From a virus (lineage: Duplodnaviria > Caudoviricetes), in IMG/VR virus record IMGVR_UViG_3300051213_000220, positions 1 to 30,592 of that record: a DNA stretch of 30,592 nucleotides. One strand, written 5' to 3'. Position numbers and translations under genes: made by a program. The notes below the pieces were generated by a model. The model worked only from the letters and a program-made list of their open reading frames with translations, was not told the origin of the DNA and made no database searches. This document shows positions 10,140-24,065 of the stretch, in pieces. How positions within the stretch are numbered: the first letter of the stretch is position 1; each line of letters opens with the position of its first letter.

Positions 10140-12215
10140 ATGGCAATAGGTAAACTACTTTTAAAACTTGGCATTGATACTACTAACCTTGACAAGGAGT
10201 TAGGAAAGGTAGAGAAGTCTATGACGAAGTTTGGACAAAATATGTCCAATCTTGGCTCTACCTTAACCCAGTCATTGACATTGCCTATTATCGGTGTTGG
10301 CGCTGCTGCTCTCAAATCCTTTGCTGACATGGAGAAGTTGGAGAATGGGTTAATAGCCATTATGGGAAGTAGTGAGGGAGCAGCAATAGAATTAGAAAAG
10401 TTACGCAAAGTAGCAGAGAATCCAGGCCTTGCCCTTCCCGAAGTTGTCAAAGCCTCTGCCTCCTTACAAAGTGTAGGGATGAATGCCGATGCTGCTCGTG
10501 AAACTATAACACAGTTTGGCAATGCCGTTGCCAGAGCCGGAGGTGGAGCGGAACAATTTGATGGAGTAGTGTTGGCACTATCACAGATAAGTGCAGTTGG
10601 CAAGGTTACACAGGAGGATCTTAATCAGATAAAGGAAAGATTACCAGAGTTTGCCAGAGTAATGAAAGAGGAGTTTGGAGTAGTGACTGCAGAAGGAATT
10701 AGAGAACTGGGAATAAGTAGCGAAGAATTTATACAAAGGTCGGTTGGTGCTTTAGGTAATTTGGAAAGAGCAAATGGAGGTTTAGCAAATACCTTTGATA
10801 ATTTAAAAGATAACGTAGGAGCATCATTAGCAGAACTTGGTAAAGCAATAAACGAAACATTAAATTTAGAGGCAGTTGCCGCAGCCTTGAGCGCAGGATT
10901 ACAAAGGTTAGTAGATGGATTTAAATCACTTAATCCGGAGACACAAGGCTTTATTGTAAAGGCTGGTTTATTAGTTGCAGCTTTAGGGCCTGCAATATTT
11001 ATAGTAGGTAAGTTAATATCTACCTTTGGAGCATTAATAGGTACTACTCGTTTAATAATGACAACAGTTAAAAATTTATCTACGGTTATATCCGGTGCCT
11101 TCGCCAAAATACTTGCTAATCCCGCTATACTTGGTGTTACTTTAGCTATTGCCGCAGTTGGTGCGATTGCCTTATATGTTTACGATAACTGGCAAGCATT
11201 TAGTGATAGATTTAAAAATATTTGGATAAATATAAAGAACTCCGTTATGCAAGGAGTTACTTTTGTTTTAGGTAAATTAGATAGTTTACAAAAAGCATTA
11301 GGTTTAGATTTATTTGATTTGTCAGGCATGACAAAGTACCAGGAAGAACAAAGAGTAGTTGCAGCGGAGTTTAAAACCATAGGTGAAACAGTTGACAGTC
11401 TTAAAGGCAAGTTTAAAAGCCTATTCATGGCTGCACCTGGCAAAGGTGGAGGTGGAGGTGGAACAGAAGGTACAGGTGAATTAGTGTTTGGTGATGGTGG
11501 CGCACCGACAGGAGGAGGAACGGGAGGAGTACCAAGTGCAACTCCAGTTGCTGCTATTACTGCACAATCAACAGGTATAACAAATATGTTACCTACTTTA
11601 GATTTATTAGCAATAAAATTAAATACAGCATCTGCAAGTAACGAAAGATTAAAACAGACAAATGAGGATGTTAAAAATTCTTTTGTAGGTGTTGAAACAC
11701 AAATGATGAGTTTTGGAAATACTGTAACAAGTGCTTTAATTGCAGCTGCAGATGCTTTTTCAAGTTTAGCCGTGCAAGGTGAGACTGATATGAAAAAATT
11801 AGGTAGTGCTGCAATGCAAGCTGCAAGAATGATAATATCATCTTATATTAAAGAAGGTGTTGCAGGTATTATAAAAGGTATCTTATCTGGTCCTTTAGGT
11901 AAAGCATTAGGTCCTGGTGCTATTGCTGTTGCTGGTGCTGCTGGTGCCGGTGCAGCAGTATTATTTAATACTATGCTTAATAAGGTTGCTCCTCCTAAAC
12001 TTGCACAAGGTGGTCTTGCCTACGGCCCTACTATGGCAACGGTGGGAGATAACAGAAACGCAAGAGTTGACCCAGAAGTTATTGCACCTTTATCAAAGCT
12101 AAAATCAATGATGGGAGACATGGGAGTAGGTGGCACATTGGAGACAAGGATAAGCGGCAATGATTTGATTATATTACTTAACAGGTCACAGAAAGGTCTT
12201 AACAGAGTACAATAA
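10140..12215 (+). CDS. Tape measure protein (691 aa)
   Basis: Ala/Gly-rich helical protein with ALSQISAVGKVTQEDLNQIKERLP tape-measure domain, hydrophobic central segments and C-terminal LAQGGLAYGPT...PEVIAPL. Confidence 0.95.
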   Translation: MAIGKLLLKLGIDTTNLDKELGKVEKSMTKFGQNMSNLGSTLTQSLTLPIIGVGAAALKSFADMEKLENGLIAIMGSSEGAAIELEKLRKVAENPGLALPEVVKASASLQSVGMNADAARETITQFGNAVARAGGGAEQFDGVVLALSQISAVGKVTQEDLNQIKERLPEFARVMKEEFGVVTAEGIRELGISSEEFIQRSVGALGNLERANGGLANTFDNLKDNVGASLAELGKAINETLNLEAVAAALSAGLQRLVDGFKSLNPETQGFIVKAGLLVAALGPAIFIVGKLISTFGALIGTTRLIMTTVKNLSTVISGAFAKILANPAILGVTLAIAAVGAIALYVYDNWQAFSDRFKNIWINIKNSVMQGVTFVLGKLDSLQKALGLDLFDLSGMTKYQEEQRVVAAEFKTIGETVDSLKGKFKSLFMAAPGKGGGGGGTEGTGELVFGDGGAPTGGGTGGVPSATPVAAITAQSTGITNMLPTLDLLAIKLNTASASNERLKQTNEDVKNSFVGVETQMMSFGNTVTSALIAAADAFSSLAVQGETDMKKLGSAAMQAARMIISSYIKEGVAGIIKGILSGPLGKALGPGAIAVAGAAGAGAAVLFNTMLNKVAPPKLAQGGLAYGPTMATVGDNRNARVDPEVIAPLSKLKSMMGDMGVGGTLETRISGNDLIILLNRSQKGLNRVQ

Positions 12216-14443
12216 TGGCAGCAAGGTTTCAAACAACGGTTTATAACGAAAAAGGCAGGAAGATAGTAGTTGCTATTAAAGACAAAGTCTTTTCCGGTAT
12301 GACTTATGATTTTGATACTATTGGTTTGCAGCTTCAATATGACAGTGAAAGTCAGCAAGGGCAGGAAAGGTTTACTCCTATCATTGGCTCACGTTGTTCT
12401 TTGTCTTTACTTATAAATAATAATGATCTTCAAACCTTGCTCCTTGACATTGGCTTGGCAGTTGAGGGAAGGTTTACAATGGAGCTGACTGCCTACCAGG
12501 ATGATAACACAACAGTATCATTTAAATGGTATGGCTATATAGTAACAGATTTAGTAGAGTTTGAAGACATACCATTGTCTATAGGTTACCAGGCGCAGAT
12601 ATCTGCCATTGATGGATTAGGATGGCTAAAGACTTTAGATTACAAAAGTGCGGTTGGGCCATATAATGGGCAGGACACAGTTGTGCAACATATTTTAAAC
12701 TGTCTTAATCAGTTGGATTTTGTCCAAGAGAATCTTGTGGCAAATAGTTTGCCTGTATTACATACTATTTTTAACTGGCATGAAAGCACATTAACATATA
12801 GTGCTAACAATGATTTTGCTTTAAAAACTGCAATACAGCATAGAGCATTTTATCACATTGATACAAAGAAAAATTATACTTACCAAAGTTGCTATGATGT
12901 AATTAAAAAGATATGTCAAGCACTTGGTGCAAGAATATTGTTTAGTGGTAGTCAATATTGGTTTATTCAGATTAATCAATATGCCAACAATCCTGCATCA
13001 TTACGTTACTTTAAATACAGTGCTTTAGGTGTACAAACATCTGGCACATTTACCGATGACTTTACTTTGTCTAATATACAAGGCAATTTAGGAAGTAGTG
13101 ATTTAATGCGATTAAGCGGAGGTAAATGGACATACTACTCTGCTTTAAAAAATGCTTTAGTAAGGTATAATCATAATGCTAAAAAGAATTTAATGCCTGG
13201 TGTAGTTTATAACTACATTACAAATACAGATCCTGTTATAGTTAGAACAGATACTTTAGATAGTACAAACAATGAGGCTAAATTAAGCTATACAGGAATG
13301 TTATATCAAAGGTCTATTTGGTCAACTGGTGGCGGTTTTGTGCCTCATATTTTTGTATATGCCGTAAAGGTTGCATCTATTATAGATTACATTCCATTGA
13401 TGGGTTTCAACATCTTACAAACATGGACACTTGGAAGTGGTTGGAGTATATTAAATGGTAGTTTATTTGCTACAACAGTTACAGGAGTAGTTGAATGGAC
13501 AGGCAGCGCAGTTGTAGCTAATAGATATTATTATGTTACAATAAAAGTTGGTTCTTTGCAGCAAGGTGAATTAAGGTTGCGCATCGGTGGAGTAACTAAA
13601 ACAATAACTACTGAAGGTGATTATGAGTATAAAATTTATACAACAAATACTGATGCTTTTAAATTAGATTCTATATCAGCTTTAAAATTTACTGGAGTTA
13701 TAGATAATCTTCAAGTTAAGCAAGAAAATAAATATTTAAAGAGACCAGTTACTTTTACTAATGGTTTTAATTATCAGTTAGGTGCTGCCAGTTGGGAAAG
13801 TAGCTTTTATGAGTGGGAATTTGTTACAGATATTATAAATTTAGATGGCACTGAAATAAATAATAAAACTATTTCATTTGACACTTTAGCTATTCCGGAG
13901 ACAGGAGAGTATGTCTGGGAGATGCGTCTAAAAGAAGTCAGAGATGAAAGTGGCACAGATATAAAAGCAGATTATGCCATTGAATATTATCTAACTAATA
14001 ATTATTTAGAATTTCTGCCAGATGGCACTATACAAGGTCAATCAGATTTAAAAGAATTTGCAAGTGATAATGATGACAAATCTTCTGTTGTCTGCAATCT
14101 TGATACATACCTTGGCGATGGGCCTTCTGCCACTACTACTGGTGGACTAAGAATATTAAATGCGTCAAATGTTTACGAACCATCCGACGCATGGAAAATA
14201 GGTAACACTGGCACCGCTAAAAATATTAGTCAATTATTAGTAAACGAGATCATCCGAGGACAACTCACACCAAAGCTCCGCATGGTAGATATGCCATTCC
14301 AAAATCTTTCAGTTGACAATCCCTACCTTCCTCACAAGGTCATAGAATATTCCTCTGGATATTACGTTTTTGAAAGAGGTAGTTTAGATTTAAAAACAGA
14401 GATTTGGCAAGGTGATTACTTTAAAATAGAACTTGATGCCTAA
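12215..14443 (+). CDS. Tail tip / hub-like protein with internal beta-sandwich insert
   Basis: Follows the TMP. WYGYI, SAIDGLGWLK and CYDVIKKICQALGARI pattern. Beta-rich. Confidence 0.7.
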   Translation: MAARFQTTVYNEKGRKIVVAIKDKVFSGMTYDFDTIGLQLQYDSESQQGQERFTPIIGSRCSLSLLINNNDLQTLLLDIGLAVEGRFTMELTAYQDDNTTVSFKWYGYIVTDLVEFEDIPLSIGYQAQISAIDGLGWLKTLDYKSAVGPYNGQDTVVQHILNCLNQLDFVQENLVANSLPVLHTIFNWHESTLTYSANNDFALKTAIQHRAFYHIDTKKNYTYQSCYDVIKKICQALGARILFSGSQYWFIQINQYANNPASLRYFKYSALGVQTSGTFTDDFTLSNIQGNLGSSDLMRLSGGKWTYYSALKNALVRYNHNAKKNLMPGVVYNYITNTDPVIVRTDTLDSTNNEAKLSYTGMLYQRSIWSTGGGFVPHIFVYAVKVASIIDYIPLMGFNILQTWTLGSGWSILNGSLFATTVTGVVEWTGSAVVANRYYYVTIKVGSLQQGELRLRIGGVTKTITTEGDYEYKIYTTNTDAFKLDSISALKFTGVIDNLQVKQENKYLKRPVTFTNGFNYQLGAASWESSFYEWEFVTDIINLDGTEINNKTISFDTLAIPETGEYVWEMRLKEVRDESGTDIKADYAIEYYLTNNYLEFLPDGTIQGQSDLKEFASDNDDKSSVVCNLDTYLGDGPSATTTGGLRILNASNVYEPSDAWKIGNTGTAKNISQLLVNEIIRGQLTPKLRMVDMPFQNLSVDNPYLPHKVIEYSSGYYVFERGSLDLKTEIWQGDYFKIELDA

Positions 14444-14807
14444 CTATACAGAAAGAACAGTTTTATCCAAGCCTCGTGACTTTAACCAGGTTGCAAACAA
14501 TGCTGGAAGTGGTGGAGTGGTGAATAATAATGTCACAGAAACAATAAACAATGTGACAGTTAATGGCTCTGCCGTTTCTATCTTTAATCAAGAATTTCTT
14601 GCAACTTCCTCCAATGTTTTAACCTGGACACAGAACAATGGCACATTGCCAGTTACTAACTTAAATGCCTCTGTTCATGTGTATCAGAATGGGCAGAAAT
14701 TAATAGATAGTCAATATAGTATCACGGCACCTGCCACTATCACAATAGATGCTAACACACATTACGATGGCAGTAATTATATTGTCTTTGCAATCAACAT
14801 AATATAA
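14436..14807 (+). CDS. Small tail-associated protein (one QEF-LTWT-NGQ domain)
   Basis: ATG 14436 preferred over TTG 14433. Its domain recurs twice in the next gene. Confidence 0.7.
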   Translation: MPNYTERTVLSKPRDFNQVANNAGSGGVVNNNVTETINNVTVNGSAVSIFNQEFLATSSNVLTWTQNNGTLPVTNLNASVHVYQNGQKLIDSQYSITAPATITIDANTHYDGSNYIVFAINII

Positions 14808-17800
14808 TGGAAGAGATAAAAGCACCGAAGAAAGAAAGAAAGTTTTTAAAAGCTATGGGTGACATTGCCCTGACCTTGTTCCGTGAGCTTGTTCTTGGCA
14901 TCGGGAAAAAGGTTATTAATAAAATAGGTAACAAACGGCAAGGCCTTGTCATTGCCCTTGTCATGGTTGCAGGTGTTTCTTACGCTGCCATTGATTCTAT
15001 TCCCTATCCAATTACAGGCAATAAGCAAAGATTAGGCTGGCAGACCAGTGGCAATGGCTTGGTGTGGAGAGGCACTGACGCAGACACTGTGACAAAACCT
15101 ACAAGCTATGCAGATAAAAATATTAAGGCTTATCTTATCCTTGACTCTGTTAGTGGCTCTTTATATGTTTTTAAGCAAGGTGCCTGGGCAGCTATAAGTG
15201 GTGTAGGAGGATTTGAACAGCCTATTGACTCATTATTCTTTGATACAAGTGTTCCGAGTAATAATGTTGACACTGCTAAAATGCGGTGGGATAGTGAGTT
15301 AGGAACGGTTGTTTTAGGAATGTACGATCAAGTGCCTAATGAACTTGGCTTTAAAAACTTTTGGTTAGTAAAAAATCAAACTGGCTCAACCATTACAAAA
15401 GGTAGTATAGTGTATGCCAATGGCACGGTTGGTGCAAGTGGAAGGATAACTATTGATAAATTTATAGCTGATGGCTCAATAGATGCAAAATATTTAATTG
15501 GAATTACAGCTCACGATTTGACAAATGGAGAAGATGGTTACGTTATATCATTTGGTAAAATAAGACAAGTTAACACCGATACTTTTGCGGCTGGTGCAAT
15601 CCTTTATCCTTCTCCAACAGTGGCAGGTGTTTGGACAGATGTAGAGCCAGTTGCTCCAAACATTGATATGCCAATTGGCTTTTGTATTAATTCATCGTCA
15701 AACAATGGAACAATAGCTATAAGAGTAGCATCCGGATATGATTTGTCAGAGCTTCATGATGTTGCTATTACTTCACCAGTTGACAAGGCTTCTTTGTATT
15801 ACTCTGGTGGATTATGGAGAGATACAACGGCAACACTTTTAGTAAGTGATACTGCCGCTATGCTTTCTAACTACGCTACCAAAGCCTATGCAGATACAAC
15901 AGGTAGATTTTATGCAAGGCAAGAATTTAGAAGTGTATCTTCAAGCACTCTGACATGGACACAGACAGATACTTTAATCGTAAATGATACGACCTCACTA
16001 CAAGTATATAGGAATGGTCAAATACTTTTGCCTAATCAATACACTGTACCAACATCTACAAGTGTAGTGATTGCATCAACATCATATAAAGCAGGTGAAA
16101 ATTATACAGTCATTCTGCCTCGTGGAGGTGGAGGTGGTGGCAGTGGATCGGGCAGCCTTACATCTATCTCCGGTGGCACTGGCATAACAGTTAGCCCTAA
16201 TCCAATTACTACCACAGGCACAGTCTCCGCAGACCTCACTGTATTAATGGAATTGACAGATACTACTTTGCTTAACCTTACTACAAGGTTTGCAACAAAG
16301 CAGAATAACATAACATTAACTACTACCGGTACAAGTGGAGCATCTACTTTAATAGGCTCTACTTTAAACATACCACAGTACACAGGAGGCAGTGGCACAG
16401 TTACCAGTGTAGGCAGTGGCTATGGATTACTTGGTGGGCCTATAACTACAACAGGTACATTAAGAGTAGATACCTCCACAGTCTACGACTTTGTCAGAGA
16501 TAGCATTGTAGCAGTGGAGATTGGAGGAGATACAATAAAAATACTAAAACAAGAATATACACCAGCTTTAACAGATACATTAACCTGGACAGTGACAAGT
16601 AAATTTCCTATTCAACTCAGACAGTTTATCCTCCTTTTCCGAAATGGACAGTTATTACTAAATGACCAATTCTCTATCATTGACACAAACAAGGTAAAGG
16701 TAGCAGCATCATCTTTTAAACTTGGCGAAAACTACACCTTAGTCACAGTATCCGGCATCGGCTCTGTTTCCTCTGGACAAGGCAATCCAGTTTATCCAGA
16801 GGCAGGCATAGCTTTAAGCACAGGCACAACATGGACAACAAGCATTACAAATAATAGTAGTAATTGGAACACAGCCTATACAGATAGATTAAAATGGGAT
16901 GGAGGAAGTACTGGACTTGTAGCAGCGACAGGGCGAACAAGTTTAGGAGGGACAACGATAGGGCAATCTATGTTTACCTTGACCAATCCTTCTGCCATTA
17001 CCTTCCCTCGCTTCAACGCTGACAACACAGTTGATGCCAGGAGTGCTGCTAATTTTCGGAGTGACATCGGAGCAGGTACAGTAACAAGTGTAACGGCATC
17101 GGGCACAGCTGGGAATCCAATATCTATAACAAATACTACGACTACACCTATAATAGAATTGTTAAGTGCTACAACGGGAAGGAATGGGTATTTAACATCC
17201 ACAGATTGGACAACCTTTAATAATAAAGGTAATGGTACAGTGACAAGTGTAAGTGGAACAGGAGCAATATCAGTTGCAACAGGTACAACTACACCTGTTA
17301 TAAGTGTGGCAGATGCAGCATTTGGAACGGCTGGTATAGTTACCTCATCTGGTACACAACAATTTAGCGGAGATAAAGTATTTGAAGGTATAACTCAATT
17401 TAACGCAAGAGCAGTATTTAAAGATTACACCTACACAGCAACAAGGCTTGGAGGCTTATCTTCCACAGATAGATTTGCCACAGTTACAATAGGTACAGGA
17501 TTATCTTTGTCAAGCGGCACATTGAGTGCAACGGGAGGCGGTGTTACAAGTGTTACAGCTTCATCTCCATTATCATCATCTGGAGGTGCTACACCTAATA
17601 TTACTATTACAGATGCAGGTGCTGCAGCATCGGGAGTAGTAAACACAACTACTCAAAGTTTTGCTGGTAATAAAACATTTACAGGTAATGTAGATATATC
17701 TACTGGCACTTTAAATGTTGGTTCAACAGGTACATTTGGAGGTAGAGTAAAAACTAATTGGTTGGAACGTAATTACGCATATTCTACAAGTTCATCATTT

Positions 17801-18073
17801 ACAGTAAGTGTAAATACTACATGGCAGGATATAAATACAAGTGTTTTAACAACATTAACACTTCCGAATGCTGCAACTTATCCTGGCAAGGAATTACATC
17901 TAAGACAAACAGGTACGGGAAATTTACAATCAGCTTCATCAAATATTATTCCTTTTACATCAGCTCCTACTGGAAGCCCTGTTACATCAATTTTAAATCC
18001 AACAAATAACAAAGCTGTAACACTTGTTAGTGATGGTACAAATTGGATAATAATGCAAAGAAGTACCAATTAA
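14807..18073 (+). CDS. Long fibre-like protein (1088 aa) with N-terminal signal/anchor segment
   Basis: Thr/Gly/Ser-rich with GTVTSV repeats and QxFxGxKTF fibre motifs. Basic N-region followed by hydrophobic GLVIALVMVAGVSYA. Confidence 0.8.
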   Translation: MEEIKAPKKERKFLKAMGDIALTLFRELVLGIGKKVINKIGNKRQGLVIALVMVAGVSYAAIDSIPYPITGNKQRLGWQTSGNGLVWRGTDADTVTKPTSYADKNIKAYLILDSVSGSLYVFKQGAWAAISGVGGFEQPIDSLFFDTSVPSNNVDTAKMRWDSELGTVVLGMYDQVPNELGFKNFWLVKNQTGSTITKGSIVYANGTVGASGRITIDKFIADGSIDAKYLIGITAHDLTNGEDGYVISFGKIRQVNTDTFAAGAILYPSPTVAGVWTDVEPVAPNIDMPIGFCINSSSNNGTIAIRVASGYDLSELHDVAITSPVDKASLYYSGGLWRDTTATLLVSDTAAMLSNYATKAYADTTGRFYARQEFRSVSSSTLTWTQTDTLIVNDTTSLQVYRNGQILLPNQYTVPTSTSVVIASTSYKAGENYTVILPRGGGGGGSGSGSLTSISGGTGITVSPNPITTTGTVSADLTVLMELTDTTLLNLTTRFATKQNNITLTTTGTSGASTLIGSTLNIPQYTGGSGTVTSVGSGYGLLGGPITTTGTLRVDTSTVYDFVRDSIVAVEIGGDTIKILKQEYTPALTDTLTWTVTSKFPIQLRQFILLFRNGQLLLNDQFSIIDTNKVKVAASSFKLGENYTLVTVSGIGSVSSGQGNPVYPEAGIALSTGTTWTTSITNNSSNWNTAYTDRLKWDGGSTGLVAATGRTSLGGTTIGQSMFTLTNPSAITFPRFNADNTVDARSAANFRSDIGAGTVTSVTASGTAGNPISITNTTTTPIIELLSATTGRNGYLTSTDWTTFNNKGNGTVTSVSGTGAISVATGTTTPVISVADAAFGTAGIVTSSGTQQFSGDKVFEGITQFNARAVFKDYTYTATRLGGLSSTDRFATVTIGTGLSLSSGTLSATGGGVTSVTASSPLSSSGGATPNITITDAGAAASGVVNTTTQSFAGNKTFTGNVDISTGTLNVGSTGTFGGRVKTNWLERNYAYSTSSSFTVSVNTTWQDINTSVLTTLTLPNAATYPGKELHLRQTGTGNLQSASSNIIPFTSAPTGSPVTSILNPTNNKAVTLVSDGTNWIIMQRSTN

Positions 18074-18092
18074 TTAAACTAAAAACATAAAC

Positions 18093-19352
18093 ATGAAACA
18101 ACTCCTTTTCCTCCTCCTTTTCCCTTGCCTTGCCTTGGCACAGTACACGGGCAACGGTAACCAAAAGATAACACTTGGTGAACAGACGACTGCTGATGGG
18201 CTGGTGTTCCGAGGCGTGGCATCCATTGACACAGTCACGGCAACAAGTAAAATTACACGGGCAAACAAACAGGATACAAGTGCATTCCTTTTGCTTGATA
18301 CAACTACAAATTTGCTATGGCATTATAAAACGGCAAGTAATGGATGGATACAAGCAGGTGGTGGTGTATCGGTTTCCTCATTCAGCGCGGGAACAACAGG
18401 ATTAACGCCATCGACGGCAACAACGGGCGCGGTAACATTGGGCGGTACATTGGCGGTGGCAAATGGGGGAACGGGGCAAAGTACCTTGGCAGCGGCTGGG
18501 ATAAATACAGGAAGTGGCACATTAAATTATTTGCCAAAATACACATCAACGGGTACAACCTTTGGGAATAGTTTAATTTTTGACAATGGAAGCAGTGTAG
18601 GAATTGGAACTGCATCACCGACCGCTGGTAATCAATTACAATTAACTGGAACTAATGCAAGATTAATAATGCTAAATACTTCTGGAAATACTTCGAATTA
18701 TTCTCAATTATCATTTGGAAATGGTACAGCTAATGGTCAATATGCTGAAATGATACGTTACAATAATACAAAACAATTTAGTATATTTAATGGTGGTGGT
18801 GATATATTTTTTTCTACTAATTATGTAAGTGATTACAGATATGACCTTTTTATTGAAACAGACAACGGCAACGTCGGCATTGGAACGGCAAGTCCATTAT
18901 CTAAATTAAATGTTATGGGGACTGTCAGAATAAATTCCGCAGCTGCACCAGATGCAAATTATTATTTACAATTAGAAAATAGCGCATCGCAAAAAGCTAA
19001 AGCAAACGCATGGGACACTTATTCAGACAAAAGAATTAAAACTGACATTCAACCAATATTCAATGCTATTGACAAAGTAAATTTATTAAATCCTGTTTAT
19101 TATCAAAAGCATGATAGTTACGTTGAAAATGATTTTTTAAATATTGATTTTGATAGTAGTGTTAAATCATTAGGTTTTATTGCACAGGAAGTTTACAACA
19201 TTATTCCCGAAGCGGTAAACACAGGAACAACAAATGAACTTTGGGCGATGGATTATACTAAAATTATCCCCATCCTTACTAAAGCCATACAAGAACAAAA
19301 CGCATTAATCAAAGCACTTGAACAAAGAATTTTAATCCTCGAAAACAAATAA
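18093..19352 (+). CDS. Fibre-like protein with signal peptide and C-terminal intramolecular chaperone (peptidase S74-like)
   Basis: MKQLLFLLLFPCLALA|Q start, VGIGTASP repeats, SDKRIKTDI...GFIAQEV...DYTKIIPILTKAIQE plus coiled coil. Confidence 0.88.
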   Translation: MKQLLFLLLFPCLALAQYTGNGNQKITLGEQTTADGLVFRGVASIDTVTATSKITRANKQDTSAFLLLDTTTNLLWHYKTASNGWIQAGGGVSVSSFSAGTTGLTPSTATTGAVTLGGTLAVANGGTGQSTLAAAGINTGSGTLNYLPKYTSTGTTFGNSLIFDNGSSVGIGTASPTAGNQLQLTGTNARLIMLNTSGNTSNYSQLSFGNGTANGQYAEMIRYNNTKQFSIFNGGGDIFFSTNYVSDYRYDLFIETDNGNVGIGTASPLSKLNVMGTVRINSAAAPDANYYLQLENSASQKAKANAWDTYSDKRIKTDIQPIFNAIDKVNLLNPVYYQKHDSYVENDFLNIDFDSSVKSLGFIAQEVYNIIPEAVNTGTTNELWAMDYTKIIPILTKAIQEQNALIKALEQRILILENK

Positions 19353-19353
19353 C

Positions 19354-19956
19354 ATGAAAAAAATACTTTTCTTTTTACTCATTCCTTTTCTTGCCCTTTC
19401 GCAAGACGTTGTTACTGATACGGTGTATATTCAAAAGCAAGGAGACATTTATTACATTGTCACCATGACCACGTTCAGCGATAGCACGGTGACAGGGAAT
19501 AAACAAATACTTGGCGATTCATTAACTGCCATTAACGCACTTGTTACCGATGCTGAAAGGCAAAGCAACACAATTGCCATTCATGCAAAGCCATTGATTT
19601 TAAAAGGTAAAGCGGTAAAGCGTATTAATTATTACAATAATTTGCACCTTCAAATAAGTGGTAAGCCTGTTTACACGTCAACGGCACTCCGTGATTCAAC
19701 GGCTTTCATTGGCGATTGGACATTGGTTTTTAACGGGGAAAATATTTTAGGTGAAATACAGATAAACAATGCCAATCGTTTTATATTTAATCCTGACAAC
19801 GGCAAGGTTTACACGATTACAACTAATTTATTATTAAGCACTTTTACCAACCAAGTCAGCTTTGCCTTCAACGGTGTGCGCTATGACTTGTACAAGTTTG
19901 CCAATGGCAAGTTTGCAACGGTGGATAATGAAGTGCGGCTAATAAAAAAGGAATAA
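19354..19956 (+). CDS. Secreted hypothetical protein
   Basis: MKKILFFLLIPFLALS|Q signal peptide. Beta-rich C-terminal half. Confidence 0.75.
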   Translation: MKKILFFLLIPFLALSQDVVTDTVYIQKQGDIYYIVTMTTFSDSTVTGNKQILGDSLTAINALVTDAERQSNTIAIHAKPLILKGKAVKRINYYNNLHLQISGKPVYTSTALRDSTAFIGDWTLVFNGENILGEIQINNANRFIFNPDNGKVYTITTNLLLSTFTNQVSFAFNGVRYDLYKFANGKFATVDNEVRLIKKE

Positions 19957-19957
19957 C

Positions 19958-20362
19958 ATGAAGTCAATAATTTTAAACCTACTTAAACAAGGATACGATT
20001 TCTTTGCCGTGGCATTGACAACTGGCTTTATCTTTTCCTTTTTCTTCCCGATTAAACATTTCCTTTTATTCACCATCGCAGTTGTAATAGCTGACACAAT
20101 CACGGGAATCAAGGCAGCACGGAAAGAGGGCAAGGCTATAACGAGCAAAGGACTGTACAGGACAACAGAGAAGATAGTGGTATATTTCACATCTATCCTT
20201 ATATTTCACGGTGCTCAGATTACCTTTGCAATACCAGTACCAATCGTTTACCTTGTGAGCTCAGTCATCGCTGGCACAGAATTGTTCAGCGTGGCGGAAA
20301 ATGTCAAGCGGATTACGGGAGTAAATCTTGGAACAATAATAATTAGATTTTTCAGACGTTAA
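19958..20362 (+). CDS. Holin
   Basis: Three hydrophobic segments, DTITGIKAARKEGKAITSKGL..T.EK and ELFSVAENV motifs. Lies upstream of the endolysin. Confidence 0.85.
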   Translation: MKSIILNLLKQGYDFFAVALTTGFIFSFFFPIKHFLLFTIAVVIADTITGIKAARKEGKAITSKGLYRTTEKIVVYFTSILIFHGAQITFAIPVPIVYLVSSVIAGTELFSVAENVKRITGVNLGTIIIRFFRR

Positions 20363-20373
20363 AACAAATAAAC

Positions 20374-20673
20374 ATGGAAACAAATTTCAAAGAAGTTTTA
20401 AAAAACTCAGACACAAAGAAAAGTCCATTATCGGACATTGCTTGCTATTCTCTTAATTTTGCAGAATTAGCGCAAAGTATAAATGTAATCGTAAGTGATG
20501 ATGATAAGAAAGTTAAATTTACCTGGCGAGAGTATGTTAAACTTGCTCAAATCATTTGGGATAAGGTTAAGGAGACATCCAAAGAGTGCGCAGGAAAGGA
20601 AATAGAAGTTAAAGTACCAGCCAAATTTGGTTTGATTAACGCAGCCTTTGCACTAATTGGTTTTAAGTTATAG
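20374..20673 (+). CDS. Hypothetical protein in lysis region
   Basis: A-rich start (AAACAAATAAACATG), 99 aa. Confidence 0.7.
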   Translation: METNFKEVLKNSDTKKSPLSDIACYSLNFAELAQSINVIVSDDDKKVKFTWREYVKLAQIIWDKVKETSKECAGKEIEVKVPAKFGLINAAFALIGFKL

Positions 20674-20746: not shown

Positions 20747-21577
20747 ATGTTACAAAAAATATTTCCAAATACCTACCAATTTATAGACTATCAAGTATTT
20801 AAAAAGGATAGGTATTTTTTACTGATTTCCGATGTACACCTTGATAGTGTGCATTGTGATAGAGTAAAGCTAAAGCAACACCTTGACCTTGCTTTGGAAA
20901 GAAGTGCTTTAGTATTTATTTTTGGTGATTTACTTGACTTGATGCAAGGAAAATATGATCCTCGGAGTAACAAAGCAGATTTAAATCCAAAATACAACTC
21001 TGCCAGGTACATTGACGAAGTAATTAAGGATGTTGTAGAATTTTTAATGCCATACAAATCTATCTTAGCTTTCTATTCTCCTGGCAACCATGAGACAAGC
21101 GTTGAAAAGCGCATTGAATATGGCATAGTAGACAAGATTTGCGGAAAGTTAGAAATGACACAAGGAAATTACTCTGGATATATTTATTGTAGAATGTATG
21201 CTTACCTTGATGAAGGTAGTAAAGTGCCTTTAATTATGGCTTATCACCACGGTTACGGAGGAGGAGGCCCAGTAACTAAAGATGTAATTCAAACAAATAG
21301 AAGAGCTGTTTATCTGCCAGATGCTAATGTTGTTATTAGTGGACATACACATGACAGATGGATAGTACCCGTTACCAGAAATAGAGTAAACAGATACGGT
21401 GAAAGTATTGACCAGCAATGGCACATCAAGACAGGCACCTATCAAAATGCACCTATTGACTTTAATGGGTATGCGGTAGAAAAAGGCTTGTCTCCTAAAG
21501 CAGGTGCAGGTATCTGGATGAAATACACCTTTGATTCAGATAAGAAATTAATTTATAATTTTCAATTTGCAGAATGA
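20747..21577 (+). CDS. Calcineurin-like metallophosphoesterase
   Basis: SDVH, FGDLLD, GNHE, HHG and SGHTH metal-binding motifs in canonical order. Confidence 0.9.
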   Translation: MLQKIFPNTYQFIDYQVFKKDRYFLLISDVHLDSVHCDRVKLKQHLDLALERSALVFIFGDLLDLMQGKYDPRSNKADLNPKYNSARYIDEVIKDVVEFLMPYKSILAFYSPGNHETSVEKRIEYGIVDKICGKLEMTQGNYSGYIYCRMYAYLDEGSKVPLIMAYHHGYGGGGPVTKDVIQTNRRAVYLPDANVVISGHTHDRWIVPVTRNRVNRYGESIDQQWHIKTGTYQNAPIDFNGYAVEKGLSPKAGAGIWMKYTFDSDKKLIYNFQFAE

Positions 21578-22233
21578 AACCAAATGAATTTGTAGTATGT
21601 GTGGATGCTGGGCATGGTGGTTTACGGAAAGGAATAGGGCCAGATAAGTATGTCACCTATCCTTCCAAATGTTTCCAACATAATCACGGTAAATTCCATG
21701 CTTATGGCTGGTTCTTTGAAGGAGTGTTCAATCGCTCCCTTGCCAACTTCCTTGAACAGTTTCTTCTTGACTATGGCTTCCAGGTGAAACAAGTCTATGA
21801 GCCTATAAACGATACATCTTTGAACAAACGATGTCAGCTCGTAAATAGCTATGCTTCTTTGGGCAAGGCAACTGTGCTTGTTTCCATTCACGGCAATGCA
21901 GCAGCTTCAACATCTGCCAGAGGATGGGAGGTGTTTACATCGCCAGGTGATACAAAGTCTGATCTCCTTGCAACCATGATAGGAGAAGAAGTAAAAGATG
22001 CTACTCCTGGCTGGGTGCATCGGCATGATTACAGTGATGGTGACCTTGACAGAGAAGCAAGATTTCAGATGTTAACGGCTACCACAGTGCCAGCGGTGTT
22101 GACAGAAAATGGCTTCTTTACAAATTACAACGATGCAGTATTAATGATTGACAGAGAATGGCAGGAGGCAGTGGCAAAAGCTCACGCTAAAGGCATTCTG
22201 GAATATGCTATAAAGCAAGGTGTGGAGTGGTAA
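21574..22233 (+). CDS. Endolysin, N-acetylmuramoyl-L-alanine amidase (Amidase_3)
   Basis: DAGHGG, EGVFN, SIHGNA and AVLTENGF motifs. Confidence 0.93.
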   Translation: MKPNEFVVCVDAGHGGLRKGIGPDKYVTYPSKCFQHNHGKFHAYGWFFEGVFNRSLANFLEQFLLDYGFQVKQVYEPINDTSLNKRCQLVNSYASLGKATVLVSIHGNAAASTSARGWEVFTSPGDTKSDLLATMIGEEVKDATPGWVHRHDYSDGDLDREARFQMLTATTVPAVLTENGFFTNYNDAVLMIDREWQEAVAKAHAKGILEYAIKQGVEW

Positions 22234-22728: not shown

Positions 22729-23185
22729 TTTCGTAATAAGTTTTAGAAATTAACGCTATTTGGAAAGCGTCTATTTCATCTTGTGAAAGTTTTTTATTTC
22801 CATGCACCTCTAACTTCATTGCCTTAATAACTGACATACAATAATCAATAGTCCATTTGCTGCCTTTGTGCTGCGGTGAAATACCTTTTACTTTATGTCC
22901 ATTTAACTCTAATAAGTCAATGATAGTCCTGGATGCTCCTTGATTCATGCCGACGTTTCGGCTAATCTTATTGCTTGCTTTTACATTTGCGTGTTTACGA
23001 AAGGTAATATTTTGGAGGGAAGAATCTTCTACAACTATTGCACAATCTCTCTCCCATGTTAGGCTATCCATTATCCATGTAGCCAGATTCTTGTACCTAC
23101 CAAAATATACCTTTTTATCATCAATCACGCACACTGCCAAGCCGTTTAGCCGCATGGCTGGATCTATGCCGACGAATTTCATCAT
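22646..23185 (-). CDS. RuvC-like Holliday junction resolvase
   Basis: FVGIDP, IVVE and DEIDA acidic triad in RNase H/RuvC spacing. Confidence 0.7.
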   Translation of the reverse strand: MMKFVGIDPAMRLNGLAVCVIDDKKVYFGRYKNLATWIMDSLTWERDCAIVVEDSSLQNITFRKHANVKASNKISRNVGMNQGASRTIIDLLELNGHKVKGISPQHKGSKWTIDYCMSVIKAMKLEVHGNKKLSQDEIDAFQIALISKTYYENDANKGYRKEAPPVEPGIHRGDDETKD

Positions 23186-24065
23186 AATTTATCTTTTTAT
23201 TTAAGAAGTTACGTTTTACATACTTACTTACAAATTTCAATAAAGTATGATAATCATAGTATTTTTTACCATGCTTCCATAATCCCATCAATGGAAAGTA
23301 TTCTAAATTTAATGTTCCATAGGTCATAAATAGGCAGTTATCATAAGTTGTTCTGCTATATCCATCCCACAAATCTATGCCGGACAACATATCATAAGTT
23401 ATTGTATCAACTGTGTAGGTATCATCTGCCTCGCTGTAATAACTCCTTTCCAACAATTTGTTACTTATTTTTTCAAAGCCAACAGTATTATAGGCAAGAA
23501 AGTGATTATTCTGGGCATTTAAAGTAGTTATTCCCAACACTAACATAATTGCCAATGATAATTGAACACTGCGCACTGTTGTATTCATCTGTACGGGCTC
23601 TTTACCTTTACTTGGTACATTGCGCTTCCTTGGTGCTTTAATGCCAATGCCGTAGGCTTCTATGCCTTTCTCAATGAATTGTATCTCTAACACATATCCA
23701 AAGCAGATAATTGTGCCGATAAAAAAGAACATGGCATAAAACTCTGCACCAGTTGCCTGGCCTTGAATAGAAAAGAATAATTCTAACAATGCTACTACGG
23801 TGGCTATTGCTGCAACCTTTGGAGGATACTTTGATCGTTTAGTAGATGGATTAAGAAAGTCAATAAATACAATGGCAAATCTGCCAAACTGCAACATGAG
23901 AGAGGCAGGGATGGAAAGGAGTAAAGGAAGGGGAAGGAAATACACATTTAGTGCAGCTGTGATGGCATAAGTTAAAATAATGCCAACAAAGATAATTTTA
24001 GGCATTGTAGATGTAATGTCATCAAATAGCCATTCAAAGTTTTGGTTGTTAAAATTCTTTTTCAT
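23121..24065 (-). CDS. Multi-pass membrane protein with an internal signal peptide-like segment and soluble C-terminal domain
   Basis: About four hydrophobic helices in residues 25-130, a basic linker, then MNTTVRSVQLSLAIMLVLGITTLNA|Q. Confidence 0.75.
   Translation of the reverse strand: MKKNFNNQNFEWLFDDITSTMPKIIFVGIILTYAITAALNVYFLPLPLLLSIPASLMLQFGRFAIVFIDFLNPSTKRSKYPPKVAAIATVVALLELFFSIQGQATGAEFYAMFFFIGTIICFGYVLEIQFIEKGIEAYGIGIKAPRKRNVPSKGKEPVQMNTTVRSVQLSLAIMLVLGITTLNAQNNHFLAYNTVGFEKISNKLLERSYYSEADDTYTVDTITYDMLSGIDLWDGYSRTTYDNCLFMTYGTLNLEYFPLMGLWKHGKKYYDYHTLLKFVSKYVKRNFLNKKINYDEIRRHRSSHAAKRLGSVRD

Follow-up and report, generated by a model that had tools for sequence, protein, structure and literature searches.

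Conserved export leaders and a predicted plug-and-socket fibre module, probably matured in the periplasm, in the late operon of an HK97-type tailed phage

Tailed phages are, in the textbook account, assembled in the cytoplasm. Fibres that branch have structural precedent: in the tailspike TSP4 of Kuttervirus phage CBA120 and in T4 gp10, XD trimers act as binding faces for other trimers (PMC8825819; this and the other sources given by PMC number are cited for the parts consulted). On the host side, a glutamine at position +1 is typical of the signal peptidase I (SPI) substrates of Bacteroidota (PMC5837995), and the O-glycosylation system of this phylum targets noncytoplasmic proteins (PMC12871550). 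Q-rule proteins are also encoded by Porphyromonas gingivalis prophages, for which the part consulted gives no function and does not present them as fibres or virion components (PMC10367356). No description of exported virion fibres was found in the open-licence literature (supplements not covered). Here we analyse a window of 30,592 nucleotides (the whole of IMG/VR virus record IMGVR_UViG_3300051213_000220) with a focus on three adjacent genes, g1088, g419, and g200, whose products probably constitute branched fibres that mature in the periplasm, are likely glycosylated there, and dock on the tail tip at lysis. Virion attachment in some form, head-fibre and tethered variants included, is a broader claim that we hold with distinctly greater confidence. 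The three open reading frames (ORFs) lie where a sequence-only reading of the window had placed them, with the N-termini it quoted; it had called all three fibre proteins, which stands for g1088 and g419 but not for g200:

14807..18073, plus strand: g1088, long fibre, 1088 amino acids (aa), proximal half conserved, distal tip exchangeable
18093..19352, plus strand: g419, short fibre, 419 aa
19354..19956, plus strand: g200, 200 aa, small exported-type beta-helix-beta protein of no known family

The analysis confirmed, at the level of leader chemistry and conservation, that all three genes carry conserved Sec/SPI-type leaders, as the sequence-only reading had claimed. Signals were called with a simple rule of our own (basic n-region, uncharged h-region, small residues at -1 and -3, within the first 35 aa) combined with conservation, not with SignalP or DeepTMHMM. 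Of the 42 window genes, 3 passed the rule: g419 and g200, whose +1 residue is Gln, plus a weak early gene in which it is Asp. The h-region of g1088, at residues 47 to 60, lies beyond the reach of the rule. The leaders of g419 and g200 are each 16 aa long and followed by Gln17, and longer forms of the two proteins are impossible because an in-frame stop lies 5 (g419) and 6 (g200) codons before the ATG. The leader of the long fibre is of an extended type:

14807..14986, plus strand: extended leader of g1088, with a ~40-aa basic amphipathic stretch, the h-region at residues 47-60, and predicted cleavage after Ala60

Among distinct relatives, the leader was kept in all 96 short fibres, as 47 different sequences of 16 to 20 aa with Ala at -1 throughout, an h-region that is always uncharged, and Gln at +1. 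Similarly, 97 of 98 g200 relatives passed the strict leader-plus-Gln rule, again with 47 leader sequences, and the leader of the 98th has one Lys. For the long fibre, an h-region behind a basic extension of ~40 aa was found in 85/85, and in the 38 leaders analysed for it the net charge was +5 to +8 with a helical moment above that of most shuffles. Many of these loci had been fetched using leader-containing queries, and the test was repeated on 80 loci fetched via g124, a signal-less gene directly upstream of the trio. The next gene was unreadable in 5 of them, which were dropped, and carried a hydrophobic leader segment in all 75 others. None of the refuting outcomes named in the sequence-only reading was seen among those that could be checked on sequence. 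By our estimate, export is very likely for g419 and g200 and quite likely for g1088. No type IX secretion system (T9SS) C-terminal sorting domain was matched with NCBIfam at E<=0.1 in the trio or four relatives, and no lipobox was seen on any of the trio (g200 has no Cys); the products are accordingly expected to remain periplasmic. The missing lipobox also sets the trio apart from spanins.

The basic amphipathic extension, needless for a plain signal peptide yet present in every long-fibre leader, could time export or remain in the membrane after cleavage. Together with the 39 of 85 leaders that, as in the window copy, lack Gln at +1, it would suit a tethered variant of long-fibre attachment. 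We rate this variant as quite improbable, since 46 of the 85 leaders end in A/G-Gln, the non-Gln type still has small residues at -1 and -3, and an h-region of ~14 aa is short for a membrane span. The extension (14807-14935) is kept across both main head-tail backbones on which the trio was found.

Behind its leader the long fibre is organised as plug, D2, domain X, stalk, second domain X, and exchangeable tip; g1088 had no match in Pfam or PHROG. Domain X is also present in g124:

14996..15211, plus strand: plug domain of g1088 (residues ~64-135), in which D-T and D-[ST] motifs are invariant
15338..15736, plus strand: D2, residues 178-310, capsid-cement/decoration-like, optional
15902..16132, plus strand: domain X copy 1 (g1088 residues 366-442), a predicted socket with a Gly-rich linker behind it; predicted local distance difference test (pLDDT) score 68-91
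16529..16762, plus strand: domain X copy 2, g1088 residues 575-652, predicted socket, profile E 2.3e-33
14436..14807, plus strand: g124, 123 aa, signal-less, with an N-terminal arm and one domain X (14574-14804)

The plug is an N-terminal domain of ~70 aa that, by alignment, g1088 and g419 share (18144-18371 in the latter). Its monomer model is poor (pLDDT 30 to 47). A profile of the mature plug matched 534 representatives at E<=1e-3, and among the best 150 of these an h-region with a small-residue/Gln site lies upstream in 145, the other 5 being N-terminally cut. In 400 other Bacteroidota genomes the plug had no match, which leaves recent capture from host S74 proteins unsupported as an alternative. 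The repeats and the S74 chaperone that had been attributed to the first two genes together are present but divided between them: the four GTVTSV-type repeats are in g1088 only, and the two VGIGT repeats and S74 in g419 only. The S74 domain (PF13884, residues 311 to 375, 19023-19217, E 1.7e-13, 51.1 bits versus a cut-off of 22) has its Ser/Lys dyad at S311 and K316 and is associated with a C-terminal coiled coil; Pfam detected S74 in 26 of the 30 short-fibre relatives scanned.

Alignment matches the g124 protein to each of the two domain X copies in g1088. Domain X gave no PDB match by sequence, and among 401 Bacteroidota genomes it appeared in one only, weakly (E 4.8e-4). By fold, it can be placed on residues 187 to 250 of CBA120 TSP4 (7rfv; Z 7.2, root mean square deviation [rmsd] 1.9, 63 aa, 18% identity), which has the lowest rmsd among its matches to small phage beta-domains. 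In the window and three complete relatives, one domain X each is found in a signal-less tail-region gene. The trio also occurs on a second head-tail backbone, unrelated to the first, where domain X makes up the C-terminal end of a signal-less protein of 811 aa encoded immediately ahead of the tape measure.

The distribution of domain X follows that of the short fibre, as would be expected if the domain X pair carries the latter. Seventy-five long fibres qualified as complete and as having a short fibre or holin visible downstream (the L122 fibre has an N gap). All 62 that are followed by a short fibre have two domain X copies (three in one case), versus none with any copy among the 13 without a short fibre downstream. 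On a quick tree of leader-plus-plug sequences, in which 69 of the 75 fibres were placed, the state changes 6 times, at least 5 of them forced by strong branches. The tips, which fall into 16 clusters among 72 fibres, lie between the two traits and are common to both states, with tips up to 96% identical occurring in either and 5 of the 16 clusters mixing them; the co-occurrence is therefore not simple linkage. The g200 gene fits the pattern less well, as a clear relative of g200 is retained in 2 of these 13 phages and a distant or truncated relative in 2 others. In 12 phages g124 persists beside a long fibre that has no domain X. This disfavours binding of domain X to domain X and favours a plug-into-socket arrangement, and by the same logic g124 is predicted to be the tail-tip adaptor, or socket, for the exported long fibre. 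One apparent g124-long fibre fusion by frameshift (P0271, a single member in one ORF) is probably an error, with no slippery heptamer visible by eye. For g200, a Foldseek search of the PDB was negative at E<=1e-3, there is one unnamed viral match, the model is modest (pLDDT 69, predicted template modelling score 0.38), and the protein is likely an accessory of the fibre complex.

The window is an entire virus record, linear, with a genome completeness estimate of 77%, and encodes terminase, portal, protease, HK97-type capsid, connectors, tail tube, and tape measure. After the latter follow, on one strand, g742, g124, g1088, g419, g200, the holin, a 99-aa gene, a phosphoesterase, and an amidase. 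The spacing from g124 through g1088, g419, and g200 to the holin is -1, 19, 1, and 1 bases, and promoter-like sites at the trio occur at chance level without excess; we therefore read the trio as belonging to the late operon:

12215..14443, plus strand: g742, signal-less tail-tip/hub protein encoded next behind the tape measure; an insertion in it likely binds carbohydrate
19958..20362, plus strand: holin (PF05105, E 4.7e-10), starting one base past g200
21574..22233, plus strand: amidase endolysin (PF01520, E 1.8e-28), ending the late operon

In two complete relatives with direct terminal repeats, no integrase or repressor match was obtained among the 80 proteins scanned, the remaining proteins match window or L121 genes, and there is no other fibre gene. 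With its late-operon position, no integrase or repressor among the proteins scanned, and promoter-like sites at chance, the trio does not look like a lysogenic-conversion moron, which would call for a temperate phage and for a promoter and terminator of its own. These data bear on the proposal that the trio is exported but never virion-bound, serving as periplasmic or released decoys, exclusion factors, or adhesins, with g742 as sole receptor-binding protein. Its layout of signal, conserved beta-rich domain, variable fibre, and S74 does parallel the Bdellovibrio MAT adhesins (PMC10769870), g742 has a possible carbohydrate-binding insertion, and the short fibre is absent from 13 of 75 phages. 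We nonetheless consider this proposal unlikely, given the late-operon site without promoter excess, the missing integrase in the two complete genomes scanned, the lack of T9SS-domain matches and lipoboxes, the long fibre following g124 in all 75 readable loci, and the presence of the same domain X in a signal-less tail-region protein. Of the fates that the sequence-only reading had left side by side, docking on the virion fits best, given this tail-region domain X and the 62/62 versus 0/13 distribution.

Where on the virion the long fibre would dock is a question on which D2 speaks differently. Its fold matches the Pam3 capsid cement protein 8hdt_G (VIA Z 9.7, rmsd 3.1, 125 aa), HFTV1 8qsy (Z 8.0), and, more weakly, the base of the phi29 head fibre (Z 5.1), with a Foldseek E of 1.4e-4; in the model of g1088 residues 63 to 445, which is good for domain X only, D2 is fair (pLDDT ~45 to 67). 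As the capsid-cement similarity is the strongest fold match and the module is common to phages with unrelated tails, the long fibre might instead be a head fibre that docks at lysis via D2 on the capsid three-fold axes, like phi29 gp8.5, with g124 having its partners elsewhere. This seems to us improbable: D2 is missing from 6 of the 75 complete long fibres, from which the N-terminal plug is never missing, D2 relatives are found in annotated tail proteins of other phages, and in the window's backbone the gene always lies behind g124.

Passage through the periplasm is further indicated by counts of the Bacteroidota O-glycosylation motif, D-[ST]-[AILVMT]. In g1088 there are 14 motifs versus 5.7 expected (1/1000 shuffles), all within residues 63 to 590, and in g200 there are 4 versus 0.7 (2/1000 shuffles). 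Pooled over 73 long fibres, residues 61 to 660 contain 874 motifs versus 218 expected, i.e., 4.0x, with four control motifs at 0.43 to 0.67 of expectation in the same region, and the distal part contains 137 versus 126. In short fibres the first 110 aa hold 212 motifs versus 45 expected and the remainder 54 versus 76. Motif enrichment is thus limited to the proximal parts of both fibres, and from this excess the proximal stalk of the long fibre is likely glycosylated. Domain X behaves likewise, with 50 motifs versus 12 expected in exported copy 1 and 16 versus 8 in exported copy 2, compared to 4 versus 6 in the cytoplasmic g124-type copies; its enrichment is confined to the copies that bear a signal.

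Conjointly, a leader chemistry kept despite changing sequence, Gln at +1, and motif enrichment in signal-bearing copies support the inner-membrane crossing that the sequence-only reading had proposed. The same observations bear on whether the leaders might be unused relics of host genes, or structural segments, of fibres that assemble in the cytoplasm. This would accord with textbook tailed-phage assembly, but we regard it as very improbable: the leaders of g419 and g200 vary (47 variants each) while their n-, h-, and c-region chemistry is kept, motif enrichment tracks the leader, and the plug and domain X are, respectively, absent from and nearly absent from the other Bacteroidota genomes searched. 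Moreover, the trio has the same GC content (0.38 to 0.40) as the late region.

Several observations weigh against periplasmic maturation and tail-tip docking as proposed here. The D2 fold points to the capsid and not to the tail, g742 may bind the receptor alone, and the XD3 match of domain X is of middling strength (Z 7.2), with phage neck proteins scoring equally well. In the window's own long fibre the +1 residue is not Gln, and the leader, at 60 aa, is unusual. As to the motifs, g419 of the window is on its own unenriched (2 versus 1.6 expected), the signal-less g742 is borderline (6 versus 2.8 expected, 51/1000 shuffles), and related sequences are not independent, so that pooled counts overstate significance and the ratios carry more weight than p-values. 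A cultured case, gp085 to gp087 of Cellulophaga phage phi18:3 (Pachyviridae; NC_021794), comprises three adjacent proteins with leader-plus-Gln starts, for which the record annotates virion tandem mass spectrometry. It speaks for the proposal by analogy, but these proteins have no sequence similarity to the window proteins, being an analogue and not a relative, and their leader proteins hold 1 motif each versus 3.0 to 3.6 expected. Finally, the family is uncultured and known from genes alone, and its host phylum, Bacteroidota, is itself inferred.

Under the reading we favour, the long fibre, the short fibre, and g200 would cross the inner membrane by Sec late in infection and shed their leaders. 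The exported proteins would gain pyroglutamate, and host O-glycans would be added to the proximal stalk. With neither a T9SS nor a lipoprotein signal, the products would remain in soluble form in the periplasm and form trimers there, for which the short fibre would use its self-cleaving S74 chaperone, and the plug at the N-terminus of the short fibre would bind the domain X sockets of the long fibre. Meanwhile, assembly of heads and tails in the cytoplasm would leave g124 at the tail tip as a single unoccupied socket. The holin is predicted to be the trigger that lets the two compartments mix: once it opens the inner membrane, the plug of the long fibre would bind g124, and the particle would be armed only on leaving.

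As regards the rest of the late operon, the nearest named ESM Atlas clusters of g742 are Sipho_Gp37 (0.91), YQBQ (0.90), and CBM_4_9 (0.92, 18% of members), to be taken as leads only; g742 is a possible second receptor-binding part, and it has no cultured relatives among 50,697 phage records. The matches of g419 and g1088 in the same records cover distal or D2 parts only. A search of the real ORFs in the window and in three complete relatives turned up no lipobox spanin; the 99-aa gene after the holin (20374-20673, plus strand), which is kept in most relatives and belongs to no family, is a candidate for a role in outer-membrane lysis. A metallophosphoesterase gene (20747-21577, plus strand) between the holin and the amidase is found in only some relatives. 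Two early genes are of note for their hydrophobic segments. A 314-aa gene (23121-24065, minus strand) has several, with an internal export-like segment ending in Ala-Gln, and its relatives in G003 and G004 are 178 to 182 aa long. The other, of ~280 aa, is on the early strand (L123:9893-10735; L127:5107-5952, minus strand). This gene product has a hydrophobic segment at its N-terminus, and its PHROG matches, to endolysin/endopeptidase, are weak; the gene occurs in many relatives and was not seen in the window.

On the second backbone (L124:6746-19998; L121:1-9824), tail tip and tape measure precede protease, capsid, tube, and portal, and most structural genes are unannotated. A third unrelated backbone (L032:2-6281) shares the short fibre and carries three paralogues of g200 in tandem; one domain X is visible there. 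The sequencing runs that best match the window are freshwater metagenomes, which may be the window's own source. In one metatranscriptome, short contigs cover g1088, the start of g419, and g200, although contigs cannot show expression; runs that hold only small shares were disregarded. Host assignment from metagenome-assembled genome bins was unreliable, the six matches being short contigs under five different labels.

Extended to Bacteroidota tailed phages in general, the data would suggest a two-compartment assembly in which the receptor-binding apparatus is exported, capped, and host-glycosylated in the periplasm as a portable plug-and-socket module and infectivity is attained only after holin mixing, a generalisation that we see as evenly balanced between right and wrong. 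If true, it would break the rule that every tailed-phage part is made and joined in the cytoplasm and provide an example of virion fibres modified by host periplasmic glycosylation. The host glycan coat would then shield or stiffen the fibre stalk, mutants in host glutaminyl cyclase or O-glycosylation would alter phage infectivity, and the module would move between unrelated head-tail lineages since one small socket domain is enough. Signal peptides, often used to class phage genes as nonstructural, call for caution, as they can mark receptor-binding proteins. For the specific claim, domain X of g124 and the first 70 residues of the long fibre offer a concrete docking pair; for the general one, phi18:3 is a cultured system.

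Some parts of the scheme have precedent, namely XD-branched tailspikes, S74 fibres, MAT fibres, and the Q-rule proteins of P. gingivalis prophages. New here are the N-terminal domain shared by the fibres and the XD3-like predicted socket domain, of which the long fibre has two copies and a signal-less tail-tip protein has one. The trio is like Bacteroidota Sec/SPI substrates in its leader, small -1/-3 residues, and, for g419 and g200, Gln at +1 (PMC5837995), and it has the D-[ST]-[AILVMT] motifs of the phylum, although the Q-rule and O-glycosylation (PMC12871550) are, in the parts consulted, described for host proteins. The Bdellovibrio MAT fibres (Caulton et al. 2024) similarly combine a signal peptide, a conserved beta-rich domain behind it, a mosaic fibre, and S74 or non-S74 ends, but they are chromosomal cell-surface adhesins with an N-terminal domain of ~130 aa (PMC10769870), whereas the window genes stand in a phage late operon and have a domain of ~70 aa; the likeness is one of layout only. 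D2 has the fold of the capsid cement/decoration proteins (Pam3, HFTV1, lambda gpD, the phi29 gp8.5 base) and, unlike them, is internal, optional, and part of an exported-type protein. Like the trio, phi18:3 gp085 to gp087 combine a hydrophobic leader and Gln with a position upstream of lysis genes. The modules of CBA120 TSP4 (XD2/XD3, of T4 gp10 type) provide a possible structural parallel to the long fibre with its two domain X copies: a long trimeric carrier has two small beta-jellyroll modules and Gly-rich linkers, and additional trimeric receptor-binding proteins dock on these modules (PMC8825819). Unlike in CBA120, carrier and branch of the window have export leaders, glycosylation motifs, and one common N-terminal domain, a signal-less gene of its own encodes an extra predicted socket, and distally there are fibres instead of O-antigen hydrolases.

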